Of a stretch of 64,000 bases of DNA, positions 19,663 through 51,859 are shown one piece after another; the first letter of the stretch is position 1, and each line of letters begins with the position of its first letter. The notes beneath the pieces were generated by a model, which did no database searches, was not told the origin of the DNA, and saw only the letters and a list, made by a program, of their open reading frames with translations. Made by a program: the position numbers and the translations under genes. The stretch is from an uncultured Planctomycetia bacterium. GTDB taxonomy: Bacteria; Omnitrophota; Gorgyraeia; 1-14-0-20-64-10. The DNA lies in NCBI GenBank assembly GCA_964597545.1, contig CAZQXN010000005.1:12647-76646 (forward strand), given 5' to 3'.

Positions 19663-20957
19663 TCCTCTTGCCTCACAAGCTGGAGCAACGGAATGGGCCG
19701 AGAAGCCACCTCTCCCATAACGGATGAGCCAGGAATGCGCACATTGATTTGAGCCCCCTCGAATAATTTCTGACCGCGGCACTCAAGGTATTGCTCCTTC
19801 CAGGAGGTCACGATTTCGATGGGGAGCACTACCTTCACCAGCGCGGATCCACCCTCCCTGCCCTTCTCGGCGCTTAAGACCGTGATGGTTTTGGCTGCGT
19901 TTTCGTCGGCAGTCTGAACCTCAGGGTGATCCGGGTAAAGCCGCGCCAGATCCAAATCGCTCAAGCCGGAAAATCGCAGTACCACCACCGCTCTTGTTGA
20001 GATAGAGCTTTTCGGGGGCGCCAAAGCACCCTTTTCAAGCACTGCCTCTGCGCCATCGGGACGGGTTACCTTCAACGGCAGCCAACCTGGGGCTGAAGGT
20101 CGAAACGGGTGCGGCAGAGTGGCTTTGAGCACCGATGGGCTTAACCGCTGCACCTCTTGCAAAGAAACATCGCCCAGGGTAACCTCGCAACCCTTTCGGA
20201 AATCAGATCCCAGGATCAGCAGCTGCCGCACCTGAGCATCAATCCGATTGGGGCGCACCAATCGGACAGAGAGAGCGGTCTCTTTCTCGGTGGCCGCGGA
20301 GCTTAAGGTGTCGGTTCGGCTTTTGGTGGCAATTCCCTGCCAATGTGCGGTTTCTTCATTGGCATTGGTGACGGTTACGTAATACAAGTCCTGCGTAAGC
20401 CTCTCACCCACAATGGCCTCCAGCCGCGTGGTGCTTTGATGAACGAACCCCAGCACGGGAAATGAATCAATCGCTACCCTGCAATCGGGACCGAAATAAT
20501 CTCCCTTGATGACCAGGAGGGTTGTGTCCATTGTGGTGGGCAGCACCTCCACCTGAGAAATGGAAGGTGCCCAAACCACCTCGAAGGCCTCCTCCAAGAG
20601 CACAAAGCGGCCTCGGCCGTTTCGGATGCCGAGCCGGAAGATCCCCTCCGGGAATTCCTTGGGAATCCCGATGTCAATCCAAACCTTGTTGACAAAGGTG
20701 ACGTTCGCAAACGGAAGGTGGCCCAACTGAGCGGCGGTTTGCCGGTCAAAACCGGTTCCAAGGACCGTTAACTTGTCGGTTTCGCCAGTCACGACACGCC
20801 TGGGAGAAACCTTCTGGATGGCCAACTCCCGTTGCCCCTTTAGGCTTTGCAAACCAAAAACAAGCATCGGCCAAAGCAAGGTCAATAAGAGCAGGCCGGC
20901 CAGGTCTAGGACGTGAATCTTTCCCAGCAATCGCCCCTGAGGATCAACGAGCCGCAA
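19659..20957 (-). CDS. DUF4330-family protein, paralog
   Basis: 432 aa. N-terminus MRLVDPQGRLLGKIHVLDLAGLLLLTLLWPMLVF parallels the 17225 gene. Repeated beta-rich segments. Confidence 0.6.
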   Translation of the reverse strand: MRLVDPQGRLLGKIHVLDLAGLLLLTLLWPMLVFGLQSLKGQRELAIQKVSPRRVVTGETDKLTVLGTGFDRQTAAQLGHLPFANVTFVNKVWIDIGIPKEFPEGIFRLGIRNGRGRFVLLEEAFEVVWAPSISQVEVLPTTMDTTLLVIKGDYFGPDCRVAIDSFPVLGFVHQSTTRLEAIVGERLTQDLYYVTVTNANEETAHWQGIATKSRTDTLSSAATEKETALSVRLVRPNRIDAQVRQLLILGSDFRKGCEVTLGDVSLQEVQRLSPSVLKATLPHPFRPSAPGWLPLKVTRPDGAEAVLEKGALAPPKSSISTRAVVVLRFSGLSDLDLARLYPDHPEVQTADENAAKTITVLSAEKGREGGSALVKVVLPIEIVTSWKEQYLECRGQKLFEGAQINVRIPGSSVMGEVASRPIPLLQLVRQEE

Positions 20958-21912
20958 AGCGCCCCCTCTCGGAGTCTGCGCACCCCCTGTTCAGCCCAGC
21001 GAAGAAGTTCACGACGTTCTGGGCACAGCGCAGCTCCATGGCTGCCCGGGAAGCCTGAGTCAATGAGGAGATGTGGGGCGTGAGGATGGCCTGAGGCATC
21101 TGGGCGAGTGGACCTTGGTACGGTTCGACCTGAAAGACATCCAGAGCCGCCCCTGAGAGGTGGCCTGATTGAAGGGCTTCAGTCAGGGCGACCTCATTCA
21201 CAAGATGCCCCCGGGCGGTATTGACCAAGCGGGCCCCAGGTTTCATGAGGGCAATTTCTGCTTTGTCCAGCAGGGGTCCTGCGTCCGGTTTGCGAGCAGC
21301 ATGCAGAGACACCACATCTGAGCGGCGAAGCAGCTCTTCGAGGGGAACCATGGCGACTCCGCTCGGCACCCCCTGCGCATTGACCTGGGGGTCGGTGGCG
21401 AGGAGGGTGGGTCCGAACGGCCGCAGCAGCGCCGCCGTAGCTCGGCCAATCCGCCCCAGACCTACCAAGCCGATTGTCCACTCCGAAAGGAGGTGGCCTG
21501 TCTCTTTGCGCCAGCGGCCCTGCCGAAAATCATGCAGGTGGCAAGAGAGGTTCCGGGCCAAAGACAAAATCATTGTAACGGCAAGCTGAGCAACCGCTGA
21601 AACCACTTCATCCGGAGTGGTTAGAATCTCGATCTTGTGGTGTCGAGCCGCCTCCAAGTCAATGGAATCGGTCCCGGTGCCGCAGCGGCTGATGCAGCGC
21701 AGTTCCGGAAGGGCCTGAAGTATCTCTGAATCGTAAGGCTCCACTCCAGCCAAAACCGCTTGGGCACCCCGCAGCTCCCTGGCCACCTCCTCCCGGCGCA
21801 ATCGATGACCCAGGGTGTTGCGCCGGAGGCTCAACCCTGCGGTATTGAGGAGCTCAAGGGGACGGTTGTCAGTTTCGCAAAACTGTTGGAGTGCAATATA
21901 AACTGATGGCAC
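20944..21912 (-). CDS. D-isomer-specific 2-hydroxyacid dehydrogenase (PGDH/LDH-D family)
   Basis: Catalytic/NAD domain GLVGLGRIGRATA and RGHLVNEVALTEAL...LDVFQVEP. Start re-placed at the in-frame GTG at 21912 (MPSVYIALQQF...), 5 nt after the upstream gene stop, giving a ~322 aa protein. The 492 aa track ORF N-terminus is a low-complexity over-extension overlapping the 21921 gene. Confidence 0.75.
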   Translation of the reverse strand: MPSVYIALQQFCETDNRPLELLNTAGLSLRRNTLGHRLRREEVARELRGAQAVLAGVEPYDSEILQALPELRCISRCGTGTDSIDLEAARHHKIEILTTPDEVVSAVAQLAVTMILSLARNLSCHLHDFRQGRWRKETGHLLSEWTIGLVGLGRIGRATAALLRPFGPTLLATDPQVNAQGVPSGVAMVPLEELLRRSDVVSLHAARKPDAGPLLDKAEIALMKPGARLVNTARGHLVNEVALTEALQSGHLSGAALDVFQVEPYQGPLAQMPQAILTPHISSLTQASRAAMELRCAQNVVNFFAGLNRGCADSERGRFAAR

Positions 21913-21920
21913 CTGCGGCC

Positions 21921-23069
21921 TCAGGAAGGGTGTGTGGTTTGAACAGCGGCGCCGGGAGTCATGGGAAGCGTTTTTCCGGTGGCGGTACGCTCGCCGATGT
22001 ATTCGAAATAGGGATTGTTGGCAATCTTTTCCGTGAAGAACAGGGCCTTGCGGTGATACAGGTAGGGATTCGAGAAGATGGGGCAGACGCCAAAATGGAG
22101 GCGCCGTCGATCTTCCGCGCAAATGGGATAGTCCGCTATGGTCAGGTCGGTTTTGTAGGTCGGCCACGATTGAATCCGGTTGACCAGGAAAAGGATGCGG
22201 GCGTTCTGCACGGGGGCGGATTGCATGTAAAAATTGAACCAGTCCCGCGTCATCTCGCCAAATGAGGCGCAGTTGAATACCAGGTCCGCGGCATCCGGCT
22301 CCAGCATGCTGAATTTTGGGCAGGGCAGCAGCACAAAGTCGTACTGGCTCAGCCACTTGCGGTTTAGGGTGGTTTCCTGAAGCACTTCTCGGATTCCGGC
22401 AATGCGGGCCTTCGGCATCCACATCTTGAGGAAGTAGCGGGCCAGGAGGAGCTGTTCTGAAAAATCAGCCAGGATATGGTGCGTCCCTGGCCACTCCTGG
22501 CTGACGAGACCCGAGAAGATGCCGTAGCTTGAACCGATATCCAAAACAAGGTCCCCCGCTTTAAGCCCATCGCCGAGCGTATCCCGAAGAACGCTTTGGC
22601 ACCAAATGTGCTTGAGCCACCGGTAGGTCACCGCATGGCCCATGCGCCGGTAGACGAACGGCTGGCCCACCGGCGTGCAGGGATACTTTCGAAGGAGTGC
22701 TTCAGCGGTGGGGCTCGTCCGGATGACTTCCAGGCATTCGTCCAGCGTATGCCGAATTCCACGGCGCCCTCCCCCGATGAGGTTCCGGGGATCAAGTCGG
22801 TTGATGTAGAAGGTGGGGGCATCCGGGATGAAGATCCGAAGCCGGCGAAACTGCCGGAAAGCCTGCGGGTCAATGGAGCCGTCTTGACGAAAGAGACGGC
22901 CGGGCTCCTTGGAAACCAAGGCGCGCCACTTCGGGGGAAGCTTCTGCCTGGGCAGCCCCAGCAAACCTGCCTCTCGGGCCGCCTGGGCATCTGCCTGGAT
23001 CTCGGCCAACACTTCCTGTTCAATCCGGAGGGTGGAATCAGTCATTTTTGACACAGAGAAACCCAACAA
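21921..23069 (-). CDS. methyltransferase-fold protein downstream of CmoA; weak CmoB-like (carboxymethyltransferase) resemblance
   Basis: 382 aa. Rossmann-type stretch DLVLDIGSSYGIFSGLV...HILADFSEQLLLARYF loosely aligns with E. coli CmoB (RTILDVGCGSGYHMW...AVGIDPTQLFLCQFEA). Overlaps the CmoA-like gene by 32 nt. Family assignment uncertain. Confidence 0.45.
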   Translation of the reverse strand: MLGFSVSKMTDSTLRIEQEVLAEIQADAQAAREAGLLGLPRQKLPPKWRALVSKEPGRLFRQDGSIDPQAFRQFRRLRIFIPDAPTFYINRLDPRNLIGGGRRGIRHTLDECLEVIRTSPTAEALLRKYPCTPVGQPFVYRRMGHAVTYRWLKHIWCQSVLRDTLGDGLKAGDLVLDIGSSYGIFSGLVSQEWPGTHHILADFSEQLLLARYFLKMWMPKARIAGIREVLQETTLNRKWLSQYDFVLLPCPKFSMLEPDAADLVFNCASFGEMTRDWFNFYMQSAPVQNARILFLVNRIQSWPTYKTDLTIADYPICAEDRRRLHFGVCPIFSNPYLYHRKALFFTEKIANNPYFEYIGERTATGKTLPMTPGAAVQTTHPS

Positions 23070-23781
23070 AGTTGTACCACTGGAAAAAAGTCTCGGCGAT
23101 CTGGAAACCGGATCGCCTGAAAAGCTCTAGATCTTCATCGATTTGAAACGGTATCAAAACGTTTTCCAAGGCTTCACGCTTTCGCACGATCTCCTCGTTG
23201 CTGTAGCCGTTTCTCTTCTTGAAGGCGTAATAATTCTCGATGAACAGCCGGTTCATCTCGCCGCTGCGGGTCAGCACCTTCTCTGTCACAATGAATGCTC
23301 CGCCGCTGACCATCGATTGGTAGATGTGGCGGATGAGGCGGTCCCTGTACAGGGGGCGAACAAACTGAAGGGTCCAGCAGAGGGTAACAACGCTGGCATT
23401 TTCGAGGGAGAGATCGGGGTCGCTGATGTCCCGGCAGTGGATCTCGATCTGCTGTTCCAACTTCCTCTCTCTAACATGGGTCTTGGCCTGCTGAACCATC
23501 GGCTCCGAGCTGTCGTAACCCACCAACCGGGCCGATGGATCCTGAAGTATCTGGGCAGCGTTGATGAGCGTTGTTCCGGTGGAGCAACCCAGGTCGTAGG
23601 CCCGGGTGCCGGGGAGATAAAACTGCTTGGCCAACTCCTGAATCAGCATCTGCTGCTCCCGGTAAAAAGGGACGCTTCGGACCAACATGTCATCGAAGAC
23701 AGCGGCCACCTCACTGTTGAATTCGAAGTCGCTCCCTCGAGAAGCGGTACCCTGAAACACCTGATCTTTGCTCTTTTGCAT
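23038..23781 (-). CDS. cmoA: carboxy-S-adenosyl-L-methionine synthase homolog (CmoA family)
   Basis: Colinear similarity to E. coli CmoA over the full length: FNSEVAAVFDDMLVRSVPFY / PGTRAYDLGCSTG / ENASVVTLCWTLQF / SGGAFIVTEK / FKKRNGYSNEEIVRKREALENVL / FQWYNFVGF. ATG at 23781 is preceded by a GGAAAGGGG SD-like sequence. Confidence 0.8.
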   Translation of the reverse strand: MQKSKDQVFQGTASRGSDFEFNSEVAAVFDDMLVRSVPFYREQQMLIQELAKQFYLPGTRAYDLGCSTGTTLINAAQILQDPSARLVGYDSSEPMVQQAKTHVRERKLEQQIEIHCRDISDPDLSLENASVVTLCWTLQFVRPLYRDRLIRHIYQSMVSGGAFIVTEKVLTRSGEMNRLFIENYYAFKKRNGYSNEEIVRKREALENVLIPFQIDEDLELFRRSGFQIAETFFQWYNFVGFLCVKND

Positions 23782-23904
23782 GATTGCCTTGCCCCTTTCC
23801 TGCTGCCTCACTGAAAAGAAATCAAACTGCATTCCCTCAACTTCACCGCCGTTTTGAGAACCTTCTCAAAGGGCTCCTCGTTGGCTTGAGTGACATCATA
23901 GAGT

Positions 23905-24813
23905 TCATCTGGTTTTCCTTGCGGAGGGATTCGCAGGTTGTTTCAGAAGGGAGCCTTCTATTACCGACTCAGTATAAGCTCCGGGGTTTCCCTTGTCTAG
24001 GTCTTTAAAAACAGCCTGCTGCAGGGGATCCGCCTCCAAGCAGCGACGCACTTCCGGGATCTCGCGCTGCTCATTGATGCCGCTGTAGCCTCTGGTGAAC
24101 GAAACGCTCATGAGTAGCACTTCATGTTCTACAATTCGGTTCTGATCGATGGATTCGGCTCGTTCCAGGGGGGTACGTGCAAGAGCGCTGTAGCGCCCCA
24201 GGAAATCTTTCCGATAAGCCAAAATCCCAAGAATTCGTCGCAGGGGTCCCGACGCTTCTCCCGCAGGCAGCGGCAAATGAGAGAAGTCGCGCGCGCACAC
24301 CAAAATGCGGCCCGACACTGAAAGGGCGCATTTCACGATCGATCGGTCCGCAAGCTCCTCACCCCTCTCAATCCTGGCCACCGCATTCCACGCAGGGATC
24401 TCCGGCCGCTCCTGGATCGCCTGAACCAGGCGCTCCAAATCGGAGGGAAGCACCAGGATCTCATCTCCTTGAACATTGACGACATGGGTGCAGTCCAAAG
24501 CTTGGGCCGCCTCCGCAACTCGGTCTGTGGCAGCGGGATGCTTGGGCGAGGTCATGAGCACCTGGCCTCCATTTTTCTCAACGACAGCTGCGATTTGGCG
24601 ATCACAGGTGGCGACCACGACGGTAGAAAATCCGCGGCACATCAGGGTACGCCTCCGAACATGCTCAATCATCGGAAGCCCCAAAATCTCCAGGAGGGGT
24701 TTCCCGGGCAGCCGCGAAGAGCCCATTCGAGCAGGGATAACAGCTGCAATTCGAATCATTGAACGCATCATCACACCTACTGGGGTAACGTCCCGCAATC
24801 TATATTGAGGCAC
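23905..24813 (-). CDS. KdsB-like cytidylyltransferase (CMP-ulosonic acid synthetase family)
   Basis: IAAVIPARMGSSRLPGKPLLEILGLPMIEHV matches the KdsB/CMP-Kdo synthetase N-terminal motif. Real start probably an internal M (MIRIAAVIPAR). Confidence 0.75.
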   Translation of the reverse strand: MPQYRLRDVTPVGVMMRSMIRIAAVIPARMGSSRLPGKPLLEILGLPMIEHVRRRTLMCRGFSTVVVATCDRQIAAVVEKNGGQVLMTSPKHPAATDRVAEAAQALDCTHVVNVQGDEILVLPSDLERLVQAIQERPEIPAWNAVARIERGEELADRSIVKCALSVSGRILVCARDFSHLPLPAGEASGPLRRILGILAYRKDFLGRYSALARTPLERAESIDQNRIVEHEVLLMSVSFTRGYSGINEQREIPEVRRCLEADPLQQAVFKDLDKGNPGAYTESVIEGSLLKQPANPSARKTR

Positions 24814-25541
24814 TGGCCGGTGATGGCCGATGCACCCTGAGAAACCAAGAAGTAAACAACCTCAGCGACCTCCTCGACCTTGGGCAATCGGCCCAGAGCA
24901 GTCTGGGTGGAGGCAAAGTTGGACAGATACGCCTCAACGGTTTCGCCCGCCGCAGGAGAAACCGGCTCCCGGAGGGCGGCATGGATCTGCTCGGTTTCCA
25001 CGTAGACCGGACAGACGGCGTTGACACGAATTCCCTTGGGCCCAAGCTCCTTGGCCAGCGACTGGGTGATGCCGTTGACCGCAAACTTGGCGGCGCAGTA
25101 AGCGCTGTTGTTGGTTGAGCCGCGCTTGCCCGCCAGAGAGGAAACGTTGACAATGACTCCTCCTGTGGGCATCCCCTCGGCTGCAGCTGCGCACCCCCAC
25201 AGGGTACCCAAGAGAGAAGTCTCAATCACCTTCTGGACGAAGAGCTCATCAATGTCATGCAGCGATTTCCAACGAGACACCCCCGCGCAGTTGATGAAGA
25301 CGTCCAAAGAACCGAAACGCTCCCTGGCGGCGCGAACAAAGCGGTGCATCCCATCCCGCTGCCGGACATCGACCCGCTCATGAAAAATCCCCTTAGGCAG
25401 CGGGGGTTGCGGGGTTGCGCGCGAGCAAACCGCCACTTGATCGCCCCGGTTGCAGAAAAGTTCCGCAATCGCCCGGCCGATCCCCCGGCTGCCGCCGGTG
25501 ATCACCACACCCCTGCTCTTTTGAGCTTGGTTCTCCTCCAT
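24777..25541 (-). CDS. SDR-family oxidoreductase
   Basis: TGGSRGIGRA cofactor motif and YCAAK catalytic motif. Confidence 0.8.
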   Translation of the reverse strand: MEENQAQKSRGVVITGGSRGIGRAIAELFCNRGDQVAVCSRATPQPPLPKGIFHERVDVRQRDGMHRFVRAARERFGSLDVFINCAGVSRWKSLHDIDELFVQKVIETSLLGTLWGCAAAAEGMPTGGVIVNVSSLAGKRGSTNNSAYCAAKFAVNGITQSLAKELGPKGIRVNAVCPVYVETEQIHAALREPVSPAAGETVEAYLSNFASTQTALGRLPKVEEVAEVVYFLVSQGASAITGQCLNIDCGTLPQ

Positions 25542-25549
25542 TGTGTCCC

Positions 25550-26308
25550 CTAGATTGTCATGGCGGTAAACCCGCCATCCACTGTAACCACCGAACCCGT
25601 TACGAAGCTGGAAGAATCTGAGGCCAACCAGACAACAGCCCCCACCAACTCGCTGGGTTTGGCAAACCGGTTCATTGGGGTGTGCCCCAAAATCTTCTCT
25701 TTTCGTTCCGCATCAATGAAATGCTTCATGCTCCACTCGGTCGGAAGAAAACCGGGCTTGAGTGCGTTGACGCGAACGTTAAAGGGGGCCCATTCCCGCG
25801 CCAGATTCTGCGTCAGGTTCAACACCCCTGCCTTGGCAGCCGAATAGACGAATGCCCTGGACAAGGGAGGGTCGGCAGAGACCGACGTGAAGTTGATGAT
25901 GGAACCAGACTTCTGCTTGATCATGGTCTCTCCGAATACCTGACAGGCATAGAGCGTACCGCCCAGATTCACGCCGAGAATCCAGTCGATCTCCTCTTGA
26001 GTAATCTCGAAGAACGGCGTCGGCGCATTGGCTCCAGCGCCGTTGAGGAGCAGATCCACCCGTCCATGCTTGGCGAGGATCTCTTCTCGACAGCGGATGA
26101 GTCCCTCTTTTGAAGTCACATCGCACGACAGGACATCAACGGATGCGGGCACGCCGGCTTTGCGCGCCTGCTCCTCGGGCGCCGCATCCAAAACCGTCAC
26201 GGCCACCCCGGCTTCATCCAACGCTTTGGCCAGGGTGGAGCAGATGTATCCGGCGCCCCCCACGACAACGGCGCGCTTTCCCTTTAGATTGAACCGATCA
26301 TTTGACAT
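25550..26308 (-). CDS. SDR-family oxidoreductase
   Basis: VVGGAGYICS Gly-rich motif and YSAAK catalytic motif. Confidence 0.8.
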   Translation of the reverse strand: MSNDRFNLKGKRAVVVGGAGYICSTLAKALDEAGVAVTVLDAAPEEQARKAGVPASVDVLSCDVTSKEGLIRCREEILAKHGRVDLLLNGAGANAPTPFFEITQEEIDWILGVNLGGTLYACQVFGETMIKQKSGSIINFTSVSADPPLSRAFVYSAAKAGVLNLTQNLAREWAPFNVRVNALKPGFLPTEWSMKHFIDAERKEKILGHTPMNRFAKPSELVGAVVWLASDSSSFVTGSVVTVDGGFTAMTI

Positions 26309-26933
26309 GGGCTTGTACCAGTTCTTTAAAATGAGTTACGTCCTTTCCGACAGCACCAAAATGGACCCCTGCGGCTTGAGCTGCCCGGGAATCCTCTTGA
26401 GTGTCCCCAAAGAAAACGATTTCTTCCGGCCGCCAGTTTTTACTCTTCTGTAGCTCTTTTAACCACAAGGACTTCTCAACCGGAGCCCCCCGAATCTGAC
26501 GGAAGTATTCCATCCAACCCCTCTGCTTCAAAATCTCCAGGAGCACCTGGTGCGGCGTACTTGAGAGCAGCCCTGTCCAATGGGTTTCCTGCACGTGACG
26601 CAAAAAATCCAAAGCCCCCGGAATCTCGCGAGCCCGAATGATTTGGCCGGTCGTCTCAGCCTCAAAACAGCGGTGAAGCTTGGCGTCCACTTCGGGGGTA
26701 TAGGGCAGTTTCAGAATTGTCTCGTAGACCGTGCGAAACTTAACATCCCTGGGTGTATGGTGATGGTTGTTGCAGTAAGCCAGGATCTCCTCCTGTCTCT
26801 GCGGAAAATCATCAAATACCCGCTCAAACGCCCGTGCCTTGATGGGATTGGAATCGACCAGGGTGCCGTCGAAATCAAAAACCAATCCCCGCGCGCGGGC
26901 AAACCGGCACTGAACCTCCGAAGCCCCTGACAT
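26298..26933 (-). CDS. HAD-superfamily phosphatase (subfamily IA)
   Basis: Motif I LVFDFDGTLVDS and C-terminal FFGDTQED. Confidence 0.7.
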   Translation of the reverse strand: MSGASEVQCRFARARGLVFDFDGTLVDSNPIKARAFERVFDDFPQRQEEILAYCNNHHHTPRDVKFRTVYETILKLPYTPEVDAKLHRCFEAETTGQIIRAREIPGALDFLRHVQETHWTGLLSSTPHQVLLEILKQRGWMEYFRQIRGAPVEKSLWLKELQKSKNWRPEEIVFFGDTQEDSRAAQAAGVHFGAVGKDVTHFKELVQAHVK

Positions 26934-26936
26934 GAT

Positions 26937-27737
26937 TTAAACCTTTTCCTCCTGACGAACCCCTTGGATCAAACTGCGCATCCGCTCCCCCCACTTCCAA
27001 AGCAGGAACACATCTGAGGCCAAAACCACAAAGGTGTACCCGCCCTCAAGGGCGGCTTGAACATTTTGGGCATTGGGATCAACGATCTGTGTCCCGCAGG
27101 CCTTACCTGCCCTGCGGCAGGCCTGAGCAACTTGCGCACAAGCCTGGGTCACCTTGGGATGATTCAGCTGACCCGGCACCCCCACCGAGCCGGAGATGTC
27201 ATAGGGTCCCGCCATCAGACCGTCGACCTCCGGAAGATCCAACAGGGATTCCGCAGCCTCAACTCCGGCCAGGGATTCAATCTGCAAGATCAGGACTGAG
27301 CGCTCGTTCCAACGCTCTACATAGGCATCAAAATCAAAACCATAGGTATGCGCTCGAGCCACCCCGAAGGAGCGCTTCCCTGCAGGCGGATATTTGCACC
27401 AATCGATGAGCTGCTTGGCTTCGCTGACCGTGGAGACATTGGGGGCAATGATCCCGTCGGCCCCGCTGTCGAGTAGACGCCTGACCATCTCTCCATTGTG
27501 GGAGGCAATGCGGGGAAGACACGGCAAACCACCCGCCTGGGAGGCAGAGATGATGGCCTGTGCCTGCTCCATGGAGATGGTGCTGTGCTCCAAATCGATG
27601 CCGATCCAGTCGACCCCGGAGCGGACAAATGCCTCCGTAATGGATGCGTGCCCCAGGGAAGTCCAACCGCCAAAAAGGGGTTCACGGCTTCTGAACCGCT
27701 TGCCGATGCCTTGATCCTGCTCTATGCCGCTCTTCAT
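26937..27737 (-). CDS. HpcH/HpaI-family class II (2-keto-acid/pyruvate) aldolase
   Basis: 266 aa. GGW..LGHASITEAFVRSGVDWIGIDLEH.. pattern typical of the HpcH/HpaI/GarL/YfaU fold. Confidence 0.75.
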   Translation of the reverse strand: MKSGIEQDQGIGKRFRSREPLFGGWTSLGHASITEAFVRSGVDWIGIDLEHSTISMEQAQAIISASQAGGLPCLPRIASHNGEMVRRLLDSGADGIIAPNVSTVSEAKQLIDWCKYPPAGKRSFGVARAHTYGFDFDAYVERWNERSVLILQIESLAGVEAAESLLDLPEVDGLMAGPYDISGSVGVPGQLNHPKVTQACAQVAQACRRAGKACGTQIVDPNAQNVQAALEGGYTFVVLASDVFLLWKWGERMRSLIQGVRQEEKV

Positions 27738-28897
27738 CTTGCACCCTCCTCACGTAGAAATTGAAGGAGCTCTCCCGCAGACCGCTCCATGCTAAAACGG
27801 TGTGCGGCTTTGGGTCCGTTGGTCCGGAGGCGTTCGCGCAAACCAACATCCTCCACCATCCGCACAATCTGGCGGTGCAGAGAATCGGCGCAGCCGGGCT
27901 CGGCCAACAGGCAGTTCTCTCCGTCTGCCGCATATTCCTTCACCCCCTCTACAGCCGTCGTCACCAGTGCCGCACCCGATGCCATGGCCTGTAGAGGCGG
28001 AGCCGGGAATCCATCGTACCGGCTGGGATAAACAAAGATATCGCTCTCCCGAAGCGCATCGGCATACGCGGCGCCATGCAGGTAGCCAAGGTTTTGATCG
28101 AACACCTTGGCCTGCTCCGGGGTGACCCTTCCAACGGAGCGGAGGGTCAGCTGATCACGCACCTGCTTCAAACGACGAAGCGCCTCCACTCCGATCTCCC
28201 TGCCCTTTTGAACGTTGGGATCGCAGTAAAGGGTCACAACCAAGGTCAGGCGATCTGCCTGGTGGGTCGGCGGCCGAAAAAGTGCTAGGTCGACCCCTCC
28301 GGGAATCATCCTGCGAATTGGAATTCCCAGGCGCTCACAGGCCTCCTGCGCCTCAGCGCTTGTGGTAAGCCGAGGGGCGGTAAAGGTGCGCTCCATCTCA
28401 ACCCAATGCTCGAACCAAGCCGCCGCCGCGGGATTGGGGGAGCGCATGGCGCGCTCGAGGTTGACGTGAATCACTGAAACCATCTTGCGCGGGGAGTCGC
28501 CCATCGACTTGAGAAGATGCGGCATCAGGTAAGGAGGATGAACCACAGTAACGCTGTTCTCCTTCCAGCGCTTCGCAGAAGGGACCAGCCCATAACAGCG
28601 GGCTTTCACCCGAGCATCAACCGCATGGTACCGCAATCCGCTCCAGCGCCTCCGAAAGAGCATCTCAAATGGCAGCGCCAACACCAGCTTTGCCCCCCAG
28701 AACCATTTGCGCCATCCCCTGCGTTGGCTTAAAACAAAACGCTTAAAATCCCACCAGTCCACCGCCGGAAAAAGAACAGTCGTGGGCACCCCTTGTCGAA
28801 CAAAAATGTTGGCGGTGTCCGCAGCAATCCGGGTGACAGAGCCGCGGCGATTATGCGAGAGGAGCATCTGCACCGAGAACTGACCGTTTCCCTTCAC
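27734..28897 (-). CDS. GT4-family (GT-B) glycosyltransferase
   Basis: C-terminal DIFVYPSRYDGFPAPPLQAMASGAALVTT with the E-x7-E-like motif. Confidence 0.8.
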   Translation of the reverse strand: MKGNGQFSVQMLLSHNRRGSVTRIAADTANIFVRQGVPTTVLFPAVDWWDFKRFVLSQRRGWRKWFWGAKLVLALPFEMLFRRRWSGLRYHAVDARVKARCYGLVPSAKRWKENSVTVVHPPYLMPHLLKSMGDSPRKMVSVIHVNLERAMRSPNPAAAAWFEHWVEMERTFTAPRLTTSAEAQEACERLGIPIRRMIPGGVDLALFRPPTHQADRLTLVVTLYCDPNVQKGREIGVEALRRLKQVRDQLTLRSVGRVTPEQAKVFDQNLGYLHGAAYADALRESDIFVYPSRYDGFPAPPLQAMASGAALVTTAVEGVKEYAADGENCLLAEPGCADSLHRQIVRMVEDVGLRERLRTNGPKAAHRFSMERSAGELLQFLREEGAR

Positions 28898-28899
28898 CC

Positions 28900-29769
28900 C
28901 TACACCTTCCCCCTGAGGCGCCGCACAACGTTTGCAAGCCCTCCTCGCCAGCGAGAGGAAAAGACCATATCCCGCCGGTCTTCGATCCGAACCGAACCGG
29001 GCTGCTTCCCCCGCAGGGAGACTCCAACGGCAGTTTCAGCCGTTCCGGTTTCCGGAAGGTAACATTCCCGCGGCAGATAGCGATTTTCTCGGCCGCCCAA
29101 CACCATGTGGTTCCGGTAGATCTGGATCTGGGCCTTGGGCCGTTGGCCTCGAATGCGCTCAATCAACTCCTCAAGATTCAGCACAAGATACGGCATCCAA
29201 CCATCGTAGTGATACTGGCAGGAACGCTCTGGGTCCAGCTCTGTTTTTCCGCTGTCCCGAGTTCGCGTCCTTAGGATCAGGGTTTCCTCGGCCGAGCGCA
29301 GCAGCCCAACCAAGAAACCCCATGGGTCTACTTGATGATGCATGACATCCTTCGAATAGACGATTTTCCAACCCAGCCCCTTTCCCCACGCAGTGAGATT
29401 CTCCTGCAGGGTCTTGGCCGGGTCCCCCAGGCAAAACTGGGCCTGGGGATATTTGCTCCTTGCCCGATCCAAAGCAACCGGGGAGATGTCCACTCCAGCG
29501 TAGGTGAGGCTGGGGTAGCGGTACTTGAGGTAACGGTAAAACTCTCCCGTAGCACACCCCATCTCCAGGAGCTTACCCTCTGTGCCGCTGGGATACCACT
29601 CCCGAAGTAGGCTGACATCGTTGAATGACTCGTAATTTTTCAGCAGGTCCGAGACGCCCAAGGAGGAGCGGCGATCAAAGCTGCGAGCATGCTTCTGATG
29701 GCTCCAGTCGGAGAACCACTTGGAAGGAGCACCTGCCGCATGCGCTTGTGTTTCGACCTCACCGCTCAT
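28900..29769 (-). CDS. class I SAM-dependent methyltransferase
   Basis: LLEMGCATGEFYRYL SAM-binding motif I. Confidence 0.7.
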   Translation of the reverse strand: MSGEVETQAHAAGAPSKWFSDWSHQKHARSFDRRSSLGVSDLLKNYESFNDVSLLREWYPSGTEGKLLEMGCATGEFYRYLKYRYPSLTYAGVDISPVALDRARSKYPQAQFCLGDPAKTLQENLTAWGKGLGWKIVYSKDVMHHQVDPWGFLVGLLRSAEETLILRTRTRDSGKTELDPERSCQYHYDGWMPYLVLNLEELIERIRGQRPKAQIQIYRNHMVLGGRENRYLPRECYLPETGTAETAVGVSLRGKQPGSVRIEDRRDMVFSSRWRGGLANVVRRLRGKV

Positions 29770-30503
29770 CTGGATTCAAGGTTCGCAGGTTGCGTTCTCC
29801 GGTTCGAGGCGGTCAGCTTCTCGGCATCCCTGAGAAACATCCCAACGGTCTCTTTGCTGTAAGGATGAACCAACATCCCCTCCAAGAGTTTTGGAACCGC
29901 TGTCACGATGTCTGCCCCTGCCTCAAACCACTGGATGATGTTCAGCACCTCGCGGGTAGACCCCACGATGATTTTGGCGGAAGAACCAAATGCGTCCAGA
30001 AGCCCGCGCAGGCGGCGGATCTCAGCCGCGGAATCGTATCCCATGTTGTTCACCCGTCCCCCGAAGATCGAGACATAGGTCGCCCCCGCCATGGCCGCAA
30101 GCAGGCACTGCTGTGCCGACATCATGGCTGTGACATTGACTCGAATGTCCTCTTCGGCTTCAAGGCGGTGAACCAGCTCCAGATTTTCCGTTCCTCCCTC
30201 TGGGCCGTGGATCGGGATCTTGACGTTGATGTTCTTTGCCCACCCTGAAAAGGTCCGGGCCTCATTGAGCATCTGGTCCGATTCGTTGGTGGTCACCTCA
30301 ACGGAAACCGGCATAGGATCGATTCGGCGGGCAATCTCTCTGATGTGCCGCTCAATCCCTTCCCAACCCCCCTGCACACCATCCTTGACGAGGATCGTGG
30401 GGTTGGTGGTGACTCCGCGGATGATCCCGAGGTGATGGTACCTGTCGATTTCATCCAGCTTGCCTGTATCCAAAAAAATCCCAGTTAAATGTATGCCATT
30501 CAT
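29766..30503 (-). CDS. transaldolase-family protein (fructose-6-phosphate aldolase/TalC-like, short form)
   Basis: 245 aa. GVTTNPTIL motif and overall FSA-like length. Confidence 0.75.
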   Translation of the reverse strand: MNGIHLTGIFLDTGKLDEIDRYHHLGIIRGVTTNPTILVKDGVQGGWEGIERHIREIARRIDPMPVSVEVTTNESDQMLNEARTFSGWAKNINVKIPIHGPEGGTENLELVHRLEAEEDIRVNVTAMMSAQQCLLAAMAGATYVSIFGGRVNNMGYDSAAEIRRLRGLLDAFGSSAKIIVGSTREVLNIIQWFEAGADIVTAVPKLLEGMLVHPYSKETVGMFLRDAEKLTASNRRTQPANLESR

Positions 30504-31126
30504 TCTTTTTGAGCTCCTTCAAAGACTGCGGTCGATTCCCACTTGTTCCCCTGAACCATCAGCCGCGGATCACACACCAAACCATGCCAGACCACAGCCT
30601 GAAAGGCCTCTGTGTGCGGCGTTGTGTTGTTGGGGTTGACGGTAGGAACCACCAAGACATGGGTTCCCTCATGTTTGGCAGCGCCCCCATCCCTGCCGAC
30701 AATTCCCAGAATGTCCATCTCCCGGGTGCGTGCCTCGTCGATGGCAGCGACAAGATTGGTGCTGATGTTGCGTTGGCGAGAGCCCCCTCCAACCGAAAGG
30801 ACAAAAAGGGCATCCCGGCTGCCTGCGCGGCTGGTCTTGAGCCACTCGGAAAAGACCGTTTCCCACCCCTCATCGTTGGTTCGGGCAGTCAGCTCTGCCA
30901 CGTTGTCGGCCGGGGTATAGGCTTCAATTCCGGCGAGCTTGCGAAAATCGCAGACTGCATGAGAACAGTTCCCTGCCGAACCCCCAACACCAACCAGAAA
31001 GAGCCGCCCCCCTTCCTGGCGAAGGCGAACGAGCCGTTCTACGATGCGGTCGGCGGCCTCACGATCCAACTGCTGCGCCACCTGACCGACCTCTTCAAAA
31101 TATTGATCTAAGAATGCCTTGCTCAT
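30500..31126 (-). CDS. SIS-domain sugar-phosphate isomerase, GmhA-like (sedoheptulose-7-phosphate isomerase family)
   Basis: 208 aa. GRLFLVGVGGSAGNCSHAVCDF and LSVGGGSRQ...ILGIVGRDGG colinear with GmhA. Confidence 0.75.
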   Translation of the reverse strand: MSKAFLDQYFEEVGQVAQQLDREAADRIVERLVRLRQEGGRLFLVGVGGSAGNCSHAVCDFRKLAGIEAYTPADNVAELTARTNDEGWETVFSEWLKTSRAGSRDALFVLSVGGGSRQRNISTNLVAAIDEARTREMDILGIVGRDGGAAKHEGTHVLVVPTVNPNNTTPHTEAFQAVVWHGLVCDPRLMVQGNKWESTAVFEGAQKE

Positions 31127-31145
31127 CTTCTTTTATCTTTACCTC

Positions 31146-32840
31146 CTAACCTGATGGAACTTCATCCATAGACACGAGGGACCTCTGACGCTGCAAATCG
31201 TTGTCCACCCGTCTGGCATCTTCCAAGGAGTGAATCTCAGACCAACCCTGCCCAATCTCCATCCCCGCCACCGGGAAGCCGTCCTCCAGCAGATACTGAA
31301 GAAGATCGGTCAAGTCGGCCTGGACAACAGACTCGGCCTCATAGAAGGGTTTCCCGGCAAAGTCATGCTGGACGCGGTCCCAAGCCGCCACCAGCGCCCG
31401 AGTCCCCCCTGAGCGCAAAAAGGCCAAACCGATGAACTCATGTGAAGCCCGGCTGGAATCGATCTTCTGACCGATAGCGGAAATCGGTCTAAAGGGATTC
31501 CAGCGGAGATTGCGCGAAGGGGCGGTAAGCTGCGGCTGAGCCACCACCAAATCCAACGCCTTGGCTCGAGGGGGCAAGTCGCCGAAGGCTCGATCTATCA
31601 CCAAGGTAATGGGGTGCGGGCTCGCTAAGAGCTGCTCTAAGATCTTCTGATCAAAGAGGATGTCGGAGTAGGCGATCAACGCTTCACCCTTGAGGTTATC
31701 TCGAGCCACCAGGATCGATTGGGCGCATCGCCCCGCAGGATAGTCAGGGTTGTGCAAGAGCTGGCAACCGGGCGCCTTGATCTTATCGTGCTGGTATCCA
31801 CCCACCACCGCTATCCGCTCCACACCGCAGGAACGAATGAGATCGGTCTGGCGCTCCAAAACGGTTTTACCTCCCAGCTCCAACATGCAGAGGGGCTTAT
31901 CCTGGAGCAGTTCCTTTAAATCCGATTGAAAACGATGGTCGCGGGCAGCAGGAATCACCGCCTGGATCTTCCTGTGTTTCGAGAATCGTTTCTCCTCCTC
32001 TTTGAGGGCGGGCAACCCTTGAATCTCAAAAACCTCCCGGAGGGTGGAGATCTGATCCTCGATCACAGCGGTAGAGCCGGTCTGGTCGATGCGCTGCAAA
32101 ACTTCCTCCATGGCGCGGATCGAAGCCCTCAGGCCATGGTTGGCATAGATCACCATCCGGAAGCCGTGATCCGCCAGCTCCTGTGCGGTCACCCCGCCAT
32201 AGGTGGTCGGAATGGCCACCAACGGCACCTTCCCCTTGAATGCCCGCGCAAAGGAAAAGATTTCATCCGCAGTGGGAGCTTTTGAATGGATGACGATGCC
32301 GTCTGCCCCGGCCGCCTCGTAGGCGTGGGCGCGTCGAAGCGCCTCAGCCATCCCCTGCCCCGCAATGAGCGCCTCCACCCGGGCAAAAACCATGAAGCCA
32401 GGATCACTCTGGGCGTTCTTTGCCGCCTCGATCTTACCGGCAAACTCCTCAACGGGGGAGAGCTCCTGTCGGGCAGCAATCAGGGAATTTGTTTTAGGAA
32501 AACGCTTATCCTCAATCACCACTGCAGCCAGCCCCGCTGCCTCGAAGCGCTTGACCATGTGCATGACCTGGGTGGCATTCCCGTAGCCGGTGTCGCAATC
32601 GCAGACAACCGGCAGGCAGGAGGCCTCATTGATGTTTCTGGCCGCCTCCAAGTTCTCGGTCATGGTGAGAATATTGGCGTCCGGCAGGGCATGCGCCGTT
32701 GAAATCTCAAGACCGCTTGCCCAGATTCCATCAAAGGAGTGACGCCCAATGAGCTTCGCCCCTAAGCCGTTGTGGGCTCCCACAATTCTTAAGATCTGTT
32801 TCTCTTCAAAGAGGGCCCTCAAGTGCGCTGCTTTGCTCAT
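31146..32840 (-). CDS. bifunctional phosphoenolpyruvate phosphomutase / nucleotidyltransferase (LicC/PntC-like cytidylyltransferase) fusion
   Basis: N-terminal PEP mutase/isocitrate lyase fold with the PepM-diagnostic EDKRFPKTNS (EDKX5NS) and CDCDTGYG. C-terminal AVIPAARDHRF...KPLCMLELGGKTVLERQ NTP_transferase domain. Confidence 0.8.
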   Translation of the reverse strand: MSKAAHLRALFEEKQILRIVGAHNGLGAKLIGRHSFDGIWASGLEISTAHALPDANILTMTENLEAARNINEASCLPVVCDCDTGYGNATQVMHMVKRFEAAGLAAVVIEDKRFPKTNSLIAARQELSPVEEFAGKIEAAKNAQSDPGFMVFARVEALIAGQGMAEALRRAHAYEAAGADGIVIHSKAPTADEIFSFARAFKGKVPLVAIPTTYGGVTAQELADHGFRMVIYANHGLRASIRAMEEVLQRIDQTGSTAVIEDQISTLREVFEIQGLPALKEEEKRFSKHRKIQAVIPAARDHRFQSDLKELLQDKPLCMLELGGKTVLERQTDLIRSCGVERIAVVGGYQHDKIKAPGCQLLHNPDYPAGRCAQSILVARDNLKGEALIAYSDILFDQKILEQLLASPHPITLVIDRAFGDLPPRAKALDLVVAQPQLTAPSRNLRWNPFRPISAIGQKIDSSRASHEFIGLAFLRSGGTRALVAAWDRVQHDFAGKPFYEAESVVQADLTDLLQYLLEDGFPVAGMEIGQGWSEIHSLEDARRVDNDLQRQRSLVSMDEVPSG

Positions 32841-33802
32841 GGGATTTTCCTCGCGACGAATCGTGCAAACGAGCTTAACCCCCGCCTTTGAAGGAACCCT
32901 TGGAACTCCTGGCGCGTGGCATCATCGGCTTCAATCAACTGCCGGTCAAAACCGGACAGCGCCAGGGCAGGATCCTGCAAGCGGTGGGCACGGACGATCT
33001 CCAAATCCAATACCCCGGGAGTGGAAACCTCCAGTAGGTCAAACCCGGCCCCTTCCAATAAAACCTCCAATCCCTTACGGGTAAAGCAGTTGGTTCGATC
33101 TGGGGGACAGAGATAAAGGTTCTTTGCCCCCAACACCGCCATGTCATACCCGGAAAAAACCAAGGCCGTTACAAAGAGCAATCCCTTCTCGCTTAAATGC
33201 GAGCGAACCCTGCTCAGCAGAGAGGTCGGATCATCAACGCGGTCGAGAGATTCCGGCAGAATTGCCGCTTCAAAAGATCCTGCTTCGGGGCCCCACCCAT
33301 GGGCCAAGGCCATCTCGTCGGCCAAAGAAACAGCGCTCAAGGATGAACTGGCCTGAAGCAAGGTGTTCAGCTCGCTGGGTGGACTGTTGACCTCCAGAAG
33401 GCGCGCACTTAAGGTCCCCTGCAGACGAAGCGCCTCCTCGATCCATTCAAGCTTCGGGTGGTGAACATGGTCAACTCTGGAATCGGCCAGCGCCTGATGA
33501 AAACCGTCGGGCGAATGACGCAAACGGCTCGCCTCAGCCAGCACCCCTGCCCAAACTTTCGGCTCGGGGATTTCCACGAGAAAGACCGAACCGCTCATGG
33601 GACAGCGAGCATAATCCAAGCCGCCAATACGGCCATAGGGCAAGAGCCGCTCGCCGGATACCGGAGAGACTTGGCGTCGGCGGGCGCCGGAACGCAGAGC
33701 CTGTCCGGCAATCTCCAGGCAGCGTTGCCGGTACTGCTGCAGTCGCTCCAAGGGTTTGACCGCACCCAGAGGGAACCGGACCTCGGTCTGGATCGTTCTC
33801 AC
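32837..33802 (-). CDS. hypothetical protein, probable class I methyltransferase fold
   Basis: 321 aa. Weak MT-like C-terminal half (LLFVTALVFSGYDMAVLG). No confident motif. Confidence 0.35.
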   Translation of the reverse strand: MRTIQTEVRFPLGAVKPLERLQQYRQRCLEIAGQALRSGARRRQVSPVSGERLLPYGRIGGLDYARCPMSGSVFLVEIPEPKVWAGVLAEASRLRHSPDGFHQALADSRVDHVHHPKLEWIEEALRLQGTLSARLLEVNSPPSELNTLLQASSSLSAVSLADEMALAHGWGPEAGSFEAAILPESLDRVDDPTSLLSRVRSHLSEKGLLFVTALVFSGYDMAVLGAKNLYLCPPDRTNCFTRKGLEVLLEGAGFDLLEVSTPGVLDLEIVRAHRLQDPALALSGFDRQLIEADDATRQEFQGFLQRRGLSSFARFVARKIP

Positions 33803-34821
33803 CTCGCCCCTCCTTTCAGGGAAGGCTCCCGAGAAAAACTGTAGGCGTCCCGGATGATCTCCATAACTGCCAGCGCCTCTTCAAGCGTTCCATGGGTCGC
33901 CGCACGGTTCTCCTGTGCTGCAGCAATGAACTCATCCACCTCTGCCTTCCAGGAATCATCCCGGTCAAAGGTGATCAACTCCTCTCGGGGATTTCCCAAT
34001 GCCATGGCTTCATCCTCGAACTGACGGCGGCCAATGACCAACTGCTCCCTACCGTAACTCCCAGATTTTGAGAGCAGCCCCTGGGCTACCAGATAACCAT
34101 TCTGGCACCCCATCTGAAGTTCAAAGGTGTGCTTCCAGAGTGTTGCCGAAGAGTGCAAAAAGGCGGGGATACCACCTGCAGAGCGCATCAGCACAAAGGC
34201 ATTGTCCTCCACCCCGCACTTCCAGAAAGAGTCGTTCAAAACCGCCTCTACCACCTTGAGCGGCCCCAGAAAGAGCTGGAAAAGATCCAGCATGTGGATC
34301 CCCTGATCCAGCAAAATCCCCCCTCCAGAAACCACAGCTCTGTTTCGCCAACTCTGCCGGTACTCAACTCCGCCCGACTTGCCGTAACTGCCCTTGACGT
34401 AAAGGATCTCACCCAAACCCCCTTCCCCGACCAGCGCCTGGGCAGCCTGGATAGAGGGGTGCAAGCGGTGGTTGAAGCCAAAGACAAGGGTGCACCGGGA
34501 AACCGAAGATGCAGCCTCTTGGATCTTCTGGAGGTCCTCCCAGTTCCTTCCGGGTGGTTTCTCGCAGAAAACACGGCCGCACCGCCTAAGGGCTTGAGCC
34601 GTCAATTCGGCTGTAACGTCGTTGGGGGTGCATACAAAGACGGCGTCGACCGACTCCCAGGGAATCGGTTCCCCCTGGGCAATGAGCGCACCGGCCAACC
34701 CCGCTTCCGCCGGATCCACCCCAGGATCCACCACCCAGATTCGATCCACCTCGGGATGCGCCTTGAGGATCCGGTAGCGGATCTGGCCCATGTAACCAAA
34801 ACCAAAGATCAAGCAATTCAT
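33799..34821 (-). CDS. Gfo/Idh/MocA-family NAD(P)-dependent oxidoreductase
   Basis: N-terminal Rossmann LIFGFGYMGQ and CEKP motif. Confidence 0.8.
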   Translation of the reverse strand: MNCLIFGFGYMGQIRYRILKAHPEVDRIWVVDPGVDPAEAGLAGALIAQGEPIPWESVDAVFVCTPNDVTAELTAQALRRCGRVFCEKPPGRNWEDLQKIQEAASSVSRCTLVFGFNHRLHPSIQAAQALVGEGGLGEILYVKGSYGKSGGVEYRQSWRNRAVVSGGGILLDQGIHMLDLFQLFLGPLKVVEAVLNDSFWKCGVEDNAFVLMRSAGGIPAFLHSSATLWKHTFELQMGCQNGYLVAQGLLSKSGSYGREQLVIGRRQFEDEAMALGNPREELITFDRDDSWKAEVDEFIAAAQENRAATHGTLEEALAVMEIIRDAYSFSREPSLKGGAR

Positions 34822-49135: not shown

Positions 49136-49147
49136 GCTCCTTGCCTC

Positions 49148-50775: not shown

Positions 50776-50788
50776 GGTCTAACGGGAC

Positions 50789-51838: not shown

Positions 51839-51859
51839 CGCCGTCGCTCCGCTCCCTGC

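Follow-up and report, generated by a model that had tools for sequence, protein, structure and literature searches.

A conserved gene cassette that combines an HpcH/HpaI-type pyruvate aldolase with a KdsB-like cytidylyltransferase and probably yields a CMP-activated, Kdo-like surface sugar

The described pathway closest in logic to the system considered here makes 3-deoxy-D-manno-octulosonate activated with cytidine monophosphate (CMP-Kdo), through an isomerase (KdsD), a condensation with a C3 unit (KdsA), a phosphatase (KdsC) and activation with cytidine triphosphate (CTP) by KdsB, with KpsF and KpsU as the capsule paralogs. The NeuB-type pathways for N-acetylneuraminic acid (Neu5Ac), Kdn, pseudaminic acid and legionaminic acid likewise lead to CMP-activated alpha-keto-acid sugars of surface glycans, and likewise lie in large glycosylation islands. 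The HpcH/HpaI, GarL and YfaU aldolases reversibly join pyruvate and an aldehyde to give 4-hydroxy-2-oxo acids, including 2-keto-3-deoxy sugar acids. Here, we consider an aldolase of this reaction type that is encoded close to a KdsB-like cytidylyltransferase in a stretch of 64,000 nucleotides (nt), hereafter the window, from an uncultured Planctomycetia bacterium placed by GTDB in the Omnitrophota (Gorgyraeia; 1-14-0-20-64-10; assembly GCA_964597545.1, contig CAZQXN010000005.1, positions 12,647 to 76,646). We propose that these genes are probably the core of a conserved, hitherto uncharacterised cassette for a CMP-activated, Kdo-like 2-ulosonic acid destined for a surface glycan. That the pyruvate aldolase itself builds the ulosonate backbone in the window is our preferred, if tentative, reading, to which we give a probability of about 0.45.

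A first-pass annotation had singled out five genes for an aldolase, a HAD phosphatase, two short-chain dehydrogenases (SDRs) and a cytidylyltransferase between 23905 and 27737, and Pfam searches recover all five there, on the minus strand. As the junctions within this block range from -11 to +8 nt, and the neighbouring ones are often 4-nt ATGA-type overlaps, the block is part of one long operon; the minus strand carries all genes of the cassette region. As a unit, however, the five genes proved too few: a tblastn comparison with related loci (n=55) delineates a conserved functional unit of about 11 genes, which in the window are the following.

34818..36422, minus strand: U, 534 amino acids (aa), a predicted GT-B glycosyltransferase (AlphaFold2 and Foldseek)
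33799..34821, minus strand: G, an NAD(P) sugar oxidoreductase of the GFO/IDH/MocA family, a member of the type I cassette (Pfam)
32837..33802, minus strand: M, 321 aa, with a C-terminal Methyltransf_23 domain (Pfam)
30500..31126, minus strand: I, a GmhA-like ketose/aldose sugar-phosphate isomerase (Pfam SIS_2)
29766..30503, minus strand: T, a small transaldolase of the TalC/TacTal type (Pfam TAL_FSA, E 1e-39)
26937..27737, minus strand: A, an HpcH/HpaI class II (Mg2+) pyruvate aldolase (Pfam HpcH_HpaI, 98.8 bits, cutoff 25)
26298..26933, minus strand: P, a C1-capped, phosphoglycolate-phosphatase-like HAD-IA phosphatase (Pfam HAD_2/Hydrolase)
25550..26308, minus strand: SDRa, a short-chain dehydrogenase (adh_short_C2, E about 1e-50)
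24777..25541, minus strand: SDRb, a short-chain dehydrogenase of generic type (adh_short_C2, E about 1e-50)
23905..24813, minus strand: K, a KdsB/KpsU-like CMP-ulosonic acid synthetase (CTP_transf_3, E 8e-38)
20944..21912, minus strand: H, 322 aa, a D-isomer-specific 2-hydroxyacid dehydrogenase, SerA/GhrB/PdxB-like (Pfam)

A scan of one genome per GTDB species yielded 363 relatives of the aldolase, and 80 loci were fetched; the counts that follow are from tblastn of all window proteins against 55 loci of at least 18 kb that were retrieved through the aldolase alone. Carriers are found among the Omnitrophota, Planctomycetes, Elusimicrobia, Chloroflexi, Uhrbacteria of the candidate phyla radiation (CPR), Thermodesulfobacteriota, SAR324, Legionella and Flavobacteriia. 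Cultured carriers are Kiloniella laminariae (L033, NZ_JAPWGY010000007), Halopseudomonas aestusnigri (L029) and an Aquirufa sp. (L083), and the archaeal carrier, L061, is a Methanomicrobiaceae contig that also encodes topoisomerase VI subunit A. Alongside the aldolase (55/55), homologs of K are present in 48 loci, SDRb in 47, SDRa in 46 (all type II loci, described below, included), G in 44, I in 41, P and U in 39 each, H in 37, T in 36 and M in 35. The order U-G-M-I-T-A-P-SDR-SDR-K-H recurs in most of the 55 loci, across at least ten phyla, and is conserved far beyond chance. The cassettes fall into three clades, namely type Ia, to which the window belongs, its sister type Ib and type II; the full gene set is carried by Ia and Ib. 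Reduced type I loci occur in diderms, with the orders U-G-methyltransferase-A-SDR-SDR-K-H in L074, U-MT21-MT21-A-K-unknown-H in L045 and T...A-SDR-SDR-K-H in L168. When loci were retrieved through K instead, the aldolase was present in three of three. In L090, a full KpsF-type arabinose 5-phosphate isomerase and a GDP-mannose-dehydratase-like gene are followed downstream by the triad I-A-P. The full type I set, with no KdsA or NeuB at the locus, is also found in CPR (L005/L023), Chloroflexi (L019, L022) and the archaeal L061.

The aldolase is recognised by the PF03328 family model (98.8 bits against a cutoff of 25), and its metal ligands and catalytic Arg/His are kept. The first-pass annotation had suggested comparing its active site with that of YfaU, and the comparison bears out the family assignment: H51, R76, E154 and D180 align to YfaU H49, R74, E153 and D179. 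These four residues are invariant across more than 80 orthologs from clades Ia, Ib and type II, as are the family-specific residues H80, R122, R128, Y132, S182, S184, C214 and D242 across the same clades, with the type II enzymes set apart only by N81S, E83D, R87P and P99Q. Given this invariance, A should be an active class II pyruvate aldolase, with a substrate that differs little, if at all, between the cassettes. It scores far under the NCBIfam cutoffs of the catabolic equivalogs (HpaI 130 against 369 bits, GarL 120 against 407, RhmA 115 against 441) and represents a distinct, well-populated and tight subfamily that counts 1477 relatives at E<=1e-20, identity being 59-84% for the top 120. 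Its homologs carry catabolic database names, such as 5-keto-4-deoxy-D-glucarate aldolase and RhmA, and the names of the cassette members as a whole are generic or catabolic; full-text literature searches found no description of the cassette.

Among solved structures, K is closest to KpsU, the CMP-Kdo synthetase of the E. coli capsule (1GQ9, E 4e-39). With 200.2 bits it clears the cutoff of 193 set for NF003952, an NCBIfam KdsB subfamily model, while falling under the equivalog cutoffs of TIGR00466 (116 against 155 bits) and NF009905 (214 against 255 bits) and scoring 42 bits with the PseF model, whose cutoff is 206. The true start is probably the Met at 24768, for a protein of 287 aa, the length of the deposited gene call. 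An alignment of 64 orthologs shows that K keeps the CTP-binding motif PARxxSxRxPGKP and the QGDE motif with the first Mg ligand. The Asp that forms the second Mg ligand (GVD in KpsU) is replaced in K by Asn, in Asn247-Glu248 (24073-24075 region), and clades Ia and II are alike in this; clade Ib keeps the Asp, but the Gln of its E-x-x-(E/D)-Q-x-R motif gives way to Phe, Leu or Met. This split in active-site signatures probably marks different sugar substrates.

Upstream of the aldolase, the gene taken at first pass for a fructose-6-phosphate aldolase (FSA) encodes a transaldolase. T keeps the TacTal residues D6, E60, K86, F132 and R135, that is, the Schiff-base Lys together with Glu and Phe at the positions where an FSA would have Gln and Tyr, which rules out the FSA identity, and its best PDB match is the Thermoplasma transaldolase 3S0C (E 8e-34, 120 bits) as against E 2e-10 and 44 bits for E. 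coli FSA. The top NCBIfam and PDB matches of I are all to the phosphoheptose isomerase GmhA, far below the equivalog cutoffs, and I has no CBS domains; this likeness favours heptose or octose phosphates over arabinose 5-phosphate. For the pairing of a small transaldolase with a GmhA-like isomerase there is a precedent in the formation of octose 8-phosphate by LmbR/LmbN (PMC5854111; PMC12945683). P shows weak NCBIfam similarity to PGP, is not of the KdsC/GmhB type, and comes and goes with I and T, being absent from type II. SDRa is closest to sugar-acid enzymes, namely D-mannonate oxidoreductase, gluconate 5-dehydrogenase and KduD (NF006132, 232 bits, cutoff 281). SDRb always co-occurs with SDRa, and at least six loci lack both, the order then being A-P-K-H.

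A metagenome survey anchored on I gave mostly GHMP-kinase contexts, its orthologs mostly adjoining a GHMP kinase and a TAL-like gene, and yielded the I-A-P triad only in L090. The recurring context of these orthologs (53-63% identity), with an SDR, a GFO-like gene, a GHMP kinase, the SIS gene and a TAL-like gene (L117, L139, L143, L146, L148, L161, L164 and others), looks like an uncharacterised heptose/octose-type nucleotide-sugar pathway; a related GHMP kinase lies inside the window at 60596-61651.

Sequence and gene context together suggest the following route in the window. T and I would supply an aldose phosphate, to whose aldehyde group A would add the enolate of pyruvate, giving a 3-deoxy-2-ulosonate phosphate without recourse to phosphoenolpyruvate (PEP), KdsA or NeuB. 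P would strip the phosphate, the two SDRs could oxidise and then re-reduce one hydroxyl as an optional tailoring step, probably an epimerisation, K would join the anomeric C2-OH to CMP, and U would transfer the sugar, with G, the methyltransferases and H as its putative tailoring enzymes. With a pentose 5-phosphate as the acceptor, the product would be C8, and with a heptose or octose phosphate from the T-I pair it would be C10 to C11. Stereochemical bookkeeping, starting from the altro, ido and talo configurations to be expected of a transaldolase product, led to no consistent assignment and was abandoned.

Several observations favour the aldolase as the backbone maker. It stays with K even in the most reduced loci, and in all three K-retrieved loci. 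The order A-P-K, and that seen in L090, reproduce the logic of KdsD-KdsA-KdsC-KdsB. The CPR, Chloroflexi and archaeal hosts are without a lipopolysaccharide (LPS)/Kdo pathway and yet carry the full type I set with neither KdsA nor NeuB at the locus, so that there the cassette itself must make the 2-ulosonic acid. The likeness of SDRa to enzymes of 2-keto-3-deoxy and other sugar acids also counts in this direction. The earlier observation that the window has no KdsA/DAHP-synthase-like gene holds: when a genuine KdsA, that of L083, is used as the tblastn query, the best E is 0.83, and Pfam detects no DAHP_synth_1 domain in the main minus-strand ORFs (open reading frames) of the window. About 40 type I loci are likewise without a KDO8P (Kdo 8-phosphate) synthase.

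The sister cassette, type II, complicates this picture. It occurs in about 15 loci, whose hosts belong to the Bacteroidota, the Gammaproteobacteria (Legionella and Methylobacter among them), the Syntrophaceae and the Thermodesulfovibrionia, and is without G, M, I, T, P and H. Its order is KDO8P synthase, CBS pair, HpcH aldolase, SDR, SDR, KdsB-like gene and GT-B (L083 8646-13120; also L055, L057-L059, L064, L065, L067, L070, L077-L080, L084 and L085). The unit is 67-82% identical across Bacteroidota, Gammaproteobacteria, Deltaproteobacteria and Nitrospirota, with KdsA at about 80% and the aldolase at about 78%, which suggests one functional block that has spread horizontally. Genes for two uncharacterised proteins (268 aa and 319 aa) often precede it, as does one for a PFTS-motif polysaccharide protein.

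The main argument against a backbone-making aldolase comes from type II, in which the gene stands directly downstream of those for a genuine KDO8P synthase (334 bits with NF003543, cutoff 242; 318 with TIGR01362, cutoff 314) and a stand-alone CBS-pair protein that resembles the C-terminus of KpsF/KdsD. Since a near-identical aldolase is here paired with a true KDO8P synthase, the aldolase is not simply a substitute for KdsA, and KdsA would be redundant in type II were the aldolase alone to make the backbone. To our knowledge, the biosynthetic ulosonate synthases for Kdo and for sialic, pseudaminic and legionaminic acids are all PEP-dependent enzymes of the KdsA/NeuB type; as a rule, pyruvate aldolases serve catabolism, and their reactions are easily reversed. 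The roles of H, G and the methyltransferases are left unexplained. The GmhA-like character of I, which elsewhere lies beside GHMP kinases, means that a C8 product is not assured even though K is KdsB-like. Finally, as the loci were found via the aldolase, its universality is partly a matter of ascertainment, and the checks anchored on K number only three.

The most economical reconciliation of the two types places the aldolase at a single node, aldose phosphate + pyruvate <-> 3-deoxy-ulosonate phosphate. In type I, the aldolase would be the sole entry to this node; in type II, PEP-driven KdsA would feed it, the aldolase would edit the product, for example by inverting C4, and the SDRs and K would pull the reaction forward. 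The pyruvate-aldolase route put forward at first pass thus stands in part: the biosynthetic context, the lack of KdsA and NeuB in type I and the intact catalytic residues speak for it, and the KDO8P synthase of type II speaks against it.

Editing might also be all that the aldolase does. A KDO8P synthase, encoded in the cassette in type II and by a housekeeping gene elsewhere, would make a Kdo-type acid, on which the HpcH enzyme, by reversible retro-aldol and aldol reactions at C3-C4, would invert C4 or equilibrate the acid with pyruvate and aldose phosphate, the SDR pair and the CMP-transferase pulling one isomer forward. We consider this unlikely, although it accords with the type II KdsA-CBS-aldolase-SDR-SDR-K set being a highly conserved, horizontally spread unit, with the near-identity of the aldolase active sites in the two types, with the KdsB likeness of K and with the reduced type I loci of diderms (L045, L074 and L168) that are without sugar-phosphate supply genes. 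The window would then require a kdsA elsewhere in the genome, tblastn having found none within it. More seriously, the full type I cassettes of Kdo-less hosts (CPR, Chloroflexi, L061) would be left unexplained unless the aldolase is also synthetic, in which case the proposal merges with the aldolase as backbone maker. Further, we know of no natural epimer of Kdo. A different division of labour would give the backbone to an oxidative module, the functional counterpart of the type II KdsA, in which T makes a ketose phosphate, I converts it to an aldose phosphate, G oxidises C1 to the aldonate and H oxidises C2. The product, by the logic of Epd/PdxB, would be a 3-hydroxy-2-ulosonate phosphate that P dephosphorylates and K activates, the aldolase being confined to tailoring. 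That G, M, I, T, P and H come and go largely as a group, with KdsA and the CBS protein in their place in type II, agrees with such a module, as do the LmbR/LmbN precedent for the T and GmhA-like pair and the proximity of H to SerA/PdxB/GhrB-type enzymes. The grouping breaks down, however, where H occurs without G (L045, L168) or G, M and H without I, T and P (L074, L071). Moreover, the product would bear a 3-OH where Kdo 8-phosphate is 3-deoxy, yet the aldolase site near C3 is the same in both cassette types, and the one gene that is always present would be left without a role. For all its good chemical precedents, we regard this scheme as rather doubtful.

The remaining proposals remove the aldolase from the sugar backbone altogether. 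Glycan loci often encode acyl or ether substituents, and the block is surrounded by many methyltransferases and tailoring genes; the aldolase is, besides, nearest to HpaI and GarL, which use small acidic aldehydes. It might, then, join pyruvate to a small aldehyde to give, after reduction by the SDRs, a small hydroxy acid that decorates the sugar, the substrate of K coming from elsewhere. This is improbable, for the aldolase persists in loci that lack both SDRs, it is not accompanied by conserved ligase, CoA or ACP genes, and the adjacencies A-P-K and I-A-P put it in the main line of the pathway. A chance resident from the degradation of aromatic compounds or sugar acids, the outcome that the first-pass annotation saw as fatal to its proposal, is hardly credible and is effectively refuted by gene context and equivalog scores. 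The catabolic names of its homologs are what speaks for it. Set against these are scores far below every catabolic equivalog cutoff, the lack of a hydratase, dehydratase or transporter partner nearby, the more than 50 loci in which it invariably sits in a glycan-biosynthesis operon together with a KdsB-like gene, and the 4-nt overlap of the aldolase start with the glycosyltransferase gene directly upstream. To explanations outside all five of these models we leave a small chance. Returning to the aldolase as the backbone maker, a bolder claim, which we advance a little more hesitantly than that role itself, is that the cassettes encode a PEP-independent route to a new CMP-ulosonic acid, either of C10 to C11 or a stereochemically new octulosonic acid, in hundreds of species that include LPS-less bacteria and archaea.

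Among the partner genes, U matches no Pfam or NCBIfam family, and neither U nor the two type II proteins, u268 and u319, match anything in the PDB by sequence. The AlphaFold2 model of U (predicted local distance difference test score, 88.9; predicted template modelling score, 0.88) retrieves GT-B glycosyltransferases in Foldseek with probability 1.0 and E down to 5e-10, which makes U a predicted glycosyltransferase of GT-B fold and a candidate transferase for the CMP-sugar. Homologs of U are found in type II loci as well, and some are fused to a GT2, deacetylase or HAD-IIIA domain. In NCBIfam, G weakly resembles inositol 2-dehydrogenase and D-xylose 1-dehydrogenase, and its orthologs are 46-74% identical. 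M always accompanies G, and the pair is absent from type II loci, L045 and L168; as they are dispensable in the latter two, G and M would be tailoring enzymes rather than backbone makers. H directly follows K in 37 of the 55 loci and is retained in the most reduced loci (L045, L168). Its true start is the GTG at 21912, from which the N-termini of its homologs (310-322 aa) align; in the 492-aa ORF at 20944-22422, the first 170 codons are spurious, have no homology and overlap a 382-aa ORF in another frame, and the Pfam domains are confined to residues 207-477. A protein of about 320 aa that is not encoded in the window adjoins A, P or K in L005 (10780-11727), L167 (7464-8426) and L045 (11588-12583); its copies share 50-64% identity, and one of them resembles NanM weakly (31 bits with TIGR04371, sugar O-methyltransferase). 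This protein and the numerous genes of the FkbM, TylF and Methyltransf_23 families suggest a heavily O-methylated sugar.

In the window, the upstream order is U, G, M, a PEP mutase fusion, I, T, a methyltransferase and a GT1 glycosyltransferase, followed by A; downstream of K come a methyltransferase, the 382-aa ORF and H. The genes in this order that are additional to the conserved ones are the following.

31146..32840, minus strand: PEP mutase-cytidylyltransferase fusion of the Ppm-PntC type, outside the conserved cassette (Pfam)
28900..29769, minus strand: accessory S-adenosylmethionine (SAM) methyltransferase (Pfam), found in some cassettes only, with homologs that take this position in about 10 loci
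27734..28897, minus strand: accessory GT1-family (GT-B) glycosyltransferase (Pfam), likewise with homologs in this position in about 10 loci
23038..23832, minus strand: accessory SAM methyltransferase (Pfam), with a homolog in only 2 loci
21921..23069, minus strand: 382-aa ORF of no family (no Pfam match, even at E 0.1), between the methyltransferase and the 2-hydroxyacid dehydrogenase, with homologs in 2 loci

The PEP mutase fusion (PEP_mutase, E 3e-57, with NTP_transf_3; TIGR02320, 314 bits against a cutoff of 319.55) is joined to its neighbours here by a 4-nt overlap and a 19-nt gap. It has homologs in only two of 85 loci (two of the 55 in the tblastn counts), located elsewhere in both, which suggests a phosphonate decoration specific to the organism of the window. 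A phosphonate cluster would be expected to include, in the same conserved unit, a Ppd (phosphonopyruvate decarboxylase) or another enzyme that consumes phosphonopyruvate; in the window, Pfam scans detect no Ppd dependent on thiamine pyrophosphate, and there is no 2-aminoethylphosphonate transaminase either. H, through a reduction to phosphonolactate like that carried out by VlpB (PMC8942020), or the aldolase could pull the unfavourable mutase reaction forward; as the function of the cassette, such a phosphonopyruvate sink was rejected, PepM accompanying the cassette in only two loci.

As a whole, the window is a very large glycosylation island with many glycosyltransferases and two ABC exporters. 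Three NeuB homologs that the first reading missed are a truncated copy at 1085-1765, a NeuB-CTP_transf_3 fusion at 6165-7937 and a NeuB with a SAF domain at 50789-51838; they were rejected as parts of the cassette, NeuB being present in only 4 of the 55 loci. Nonulosonic-acid genes, at 427-7937 and 46077-55841 on the minus strand, include PseB/PseC-like genes, PIG-L and polysaccharide deacetylases, and two formyltransferase-like genes, and CTP_transf_3 is also fused to an aminotransferase III (46077-48122) and to a GT2 domain (3378-4877). The combination of deacetylase and formyltransferase resembles the legionaminic-acid cluster of Ca. Kuenenia (SugarBase preprint, 10.64898/2026.04.20.719630). 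Three B12-binding radical SAM enzymes on the minus strand (51860-53575, 58161-59777 and 61648-63237), with similar ones beside the cassette in L003, L015 and L061, may C-methylate sugars and could bear on reports of 'higher-carbon' ulosonic acids. Downstream of the cassette, also on the minus strand, are TIG/DUF4330-like proteins (17225-18259 and 19659-20957) and a weakly PMT_2-like membrane protein of 508 aa (18256-19782). Their homologs follow the cassette in L009 and L047, and they may be the protein acceptor of the glycan and its transferase.

If the proposal is correct, the cassette adds to the enzymatic routes to acidic surface sugars one of a new logic, be the aldolase the only backbone former or an editor beside KdsA; a PEP-independent synthase and a retro-aldol editor of a KdsA product would both be new. 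The cassette would very likely define a new sugar too and, many of its carriers being uncultured, could explain alpha-keto-acid sugars that environmental glycomics has left unassigned. For glycoengineering, it provides an aldolase, a CMP-transferase and a GT-B family that are all new, and the cultured carriers make the question directly testable.

Set beside the known systems, three of four features of the CMP-Kdo pathway, namely KdsA, a KdsD-type isomerase and a KdsC-type phosphatase, are lacking, and a divergent KdsB homolog is present. Where that pathway uses KdsA, the cassette has a single enzyme that forms a C-C bond to give a 2-oxo acid, a class II pyruvate aldolase of another superfamily branch, and the donor would accordingly be pyruvate rather than PEP. 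KdsD combines a SIS domain with two CBS domains and KdsC is of the HAD-IIIA type, whereas the cassette has a GmhA-like SIS_2 protein without CBS domains and a HAD-IA phosphatase; KdsB has an Asp as the second Mg ligand where K has Asn; and the cassette adds SDR, GFO, methyltransferase and 2-hydroxyacid dehydrogenase genes. From the NeuB-type pathways it differs in that K is KdsB-like and not NeuA/PseF-like and that the conserved core has no aminotransferase or acetyltransferase; Pfam detects no NeuB within 20944-36422. The higher-carbon CMP-ulosonic acids of the SugarBase preprint were considered as a match and set aside, as they are di-N-acetylated sugars like legionaminic and pseudaminic acids and no such genes are named there. 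The lincomycin octose module LmbR/LmbN, and the heptose logic of GmhA/HddA, share with the cassette an adjacent small transaldolase and GmhA-like isomerase, as judged by gene pairing and family types; in LmbR/LmbN an anomeric kinase and a nucleoside-diphosphate (NDP) transferase follow, whereas here an aldolase, a phosphatase and a CMP-transferase do. With HpcH/HpaI, GarL, YfaU (RhmA) and the Kdo aldolase EC 4.1.2.23, finally, the cassette aldolase has its fold, metal ligands and catalytic Arg/His in common. HpcH/HpaI, GarL and YfaU are catabolic enzymes, however, to which the cassette subfamily is about 33% identical; unlike them, it has invariant residues of its own and is restricted to glycan-biosynthesis operons.

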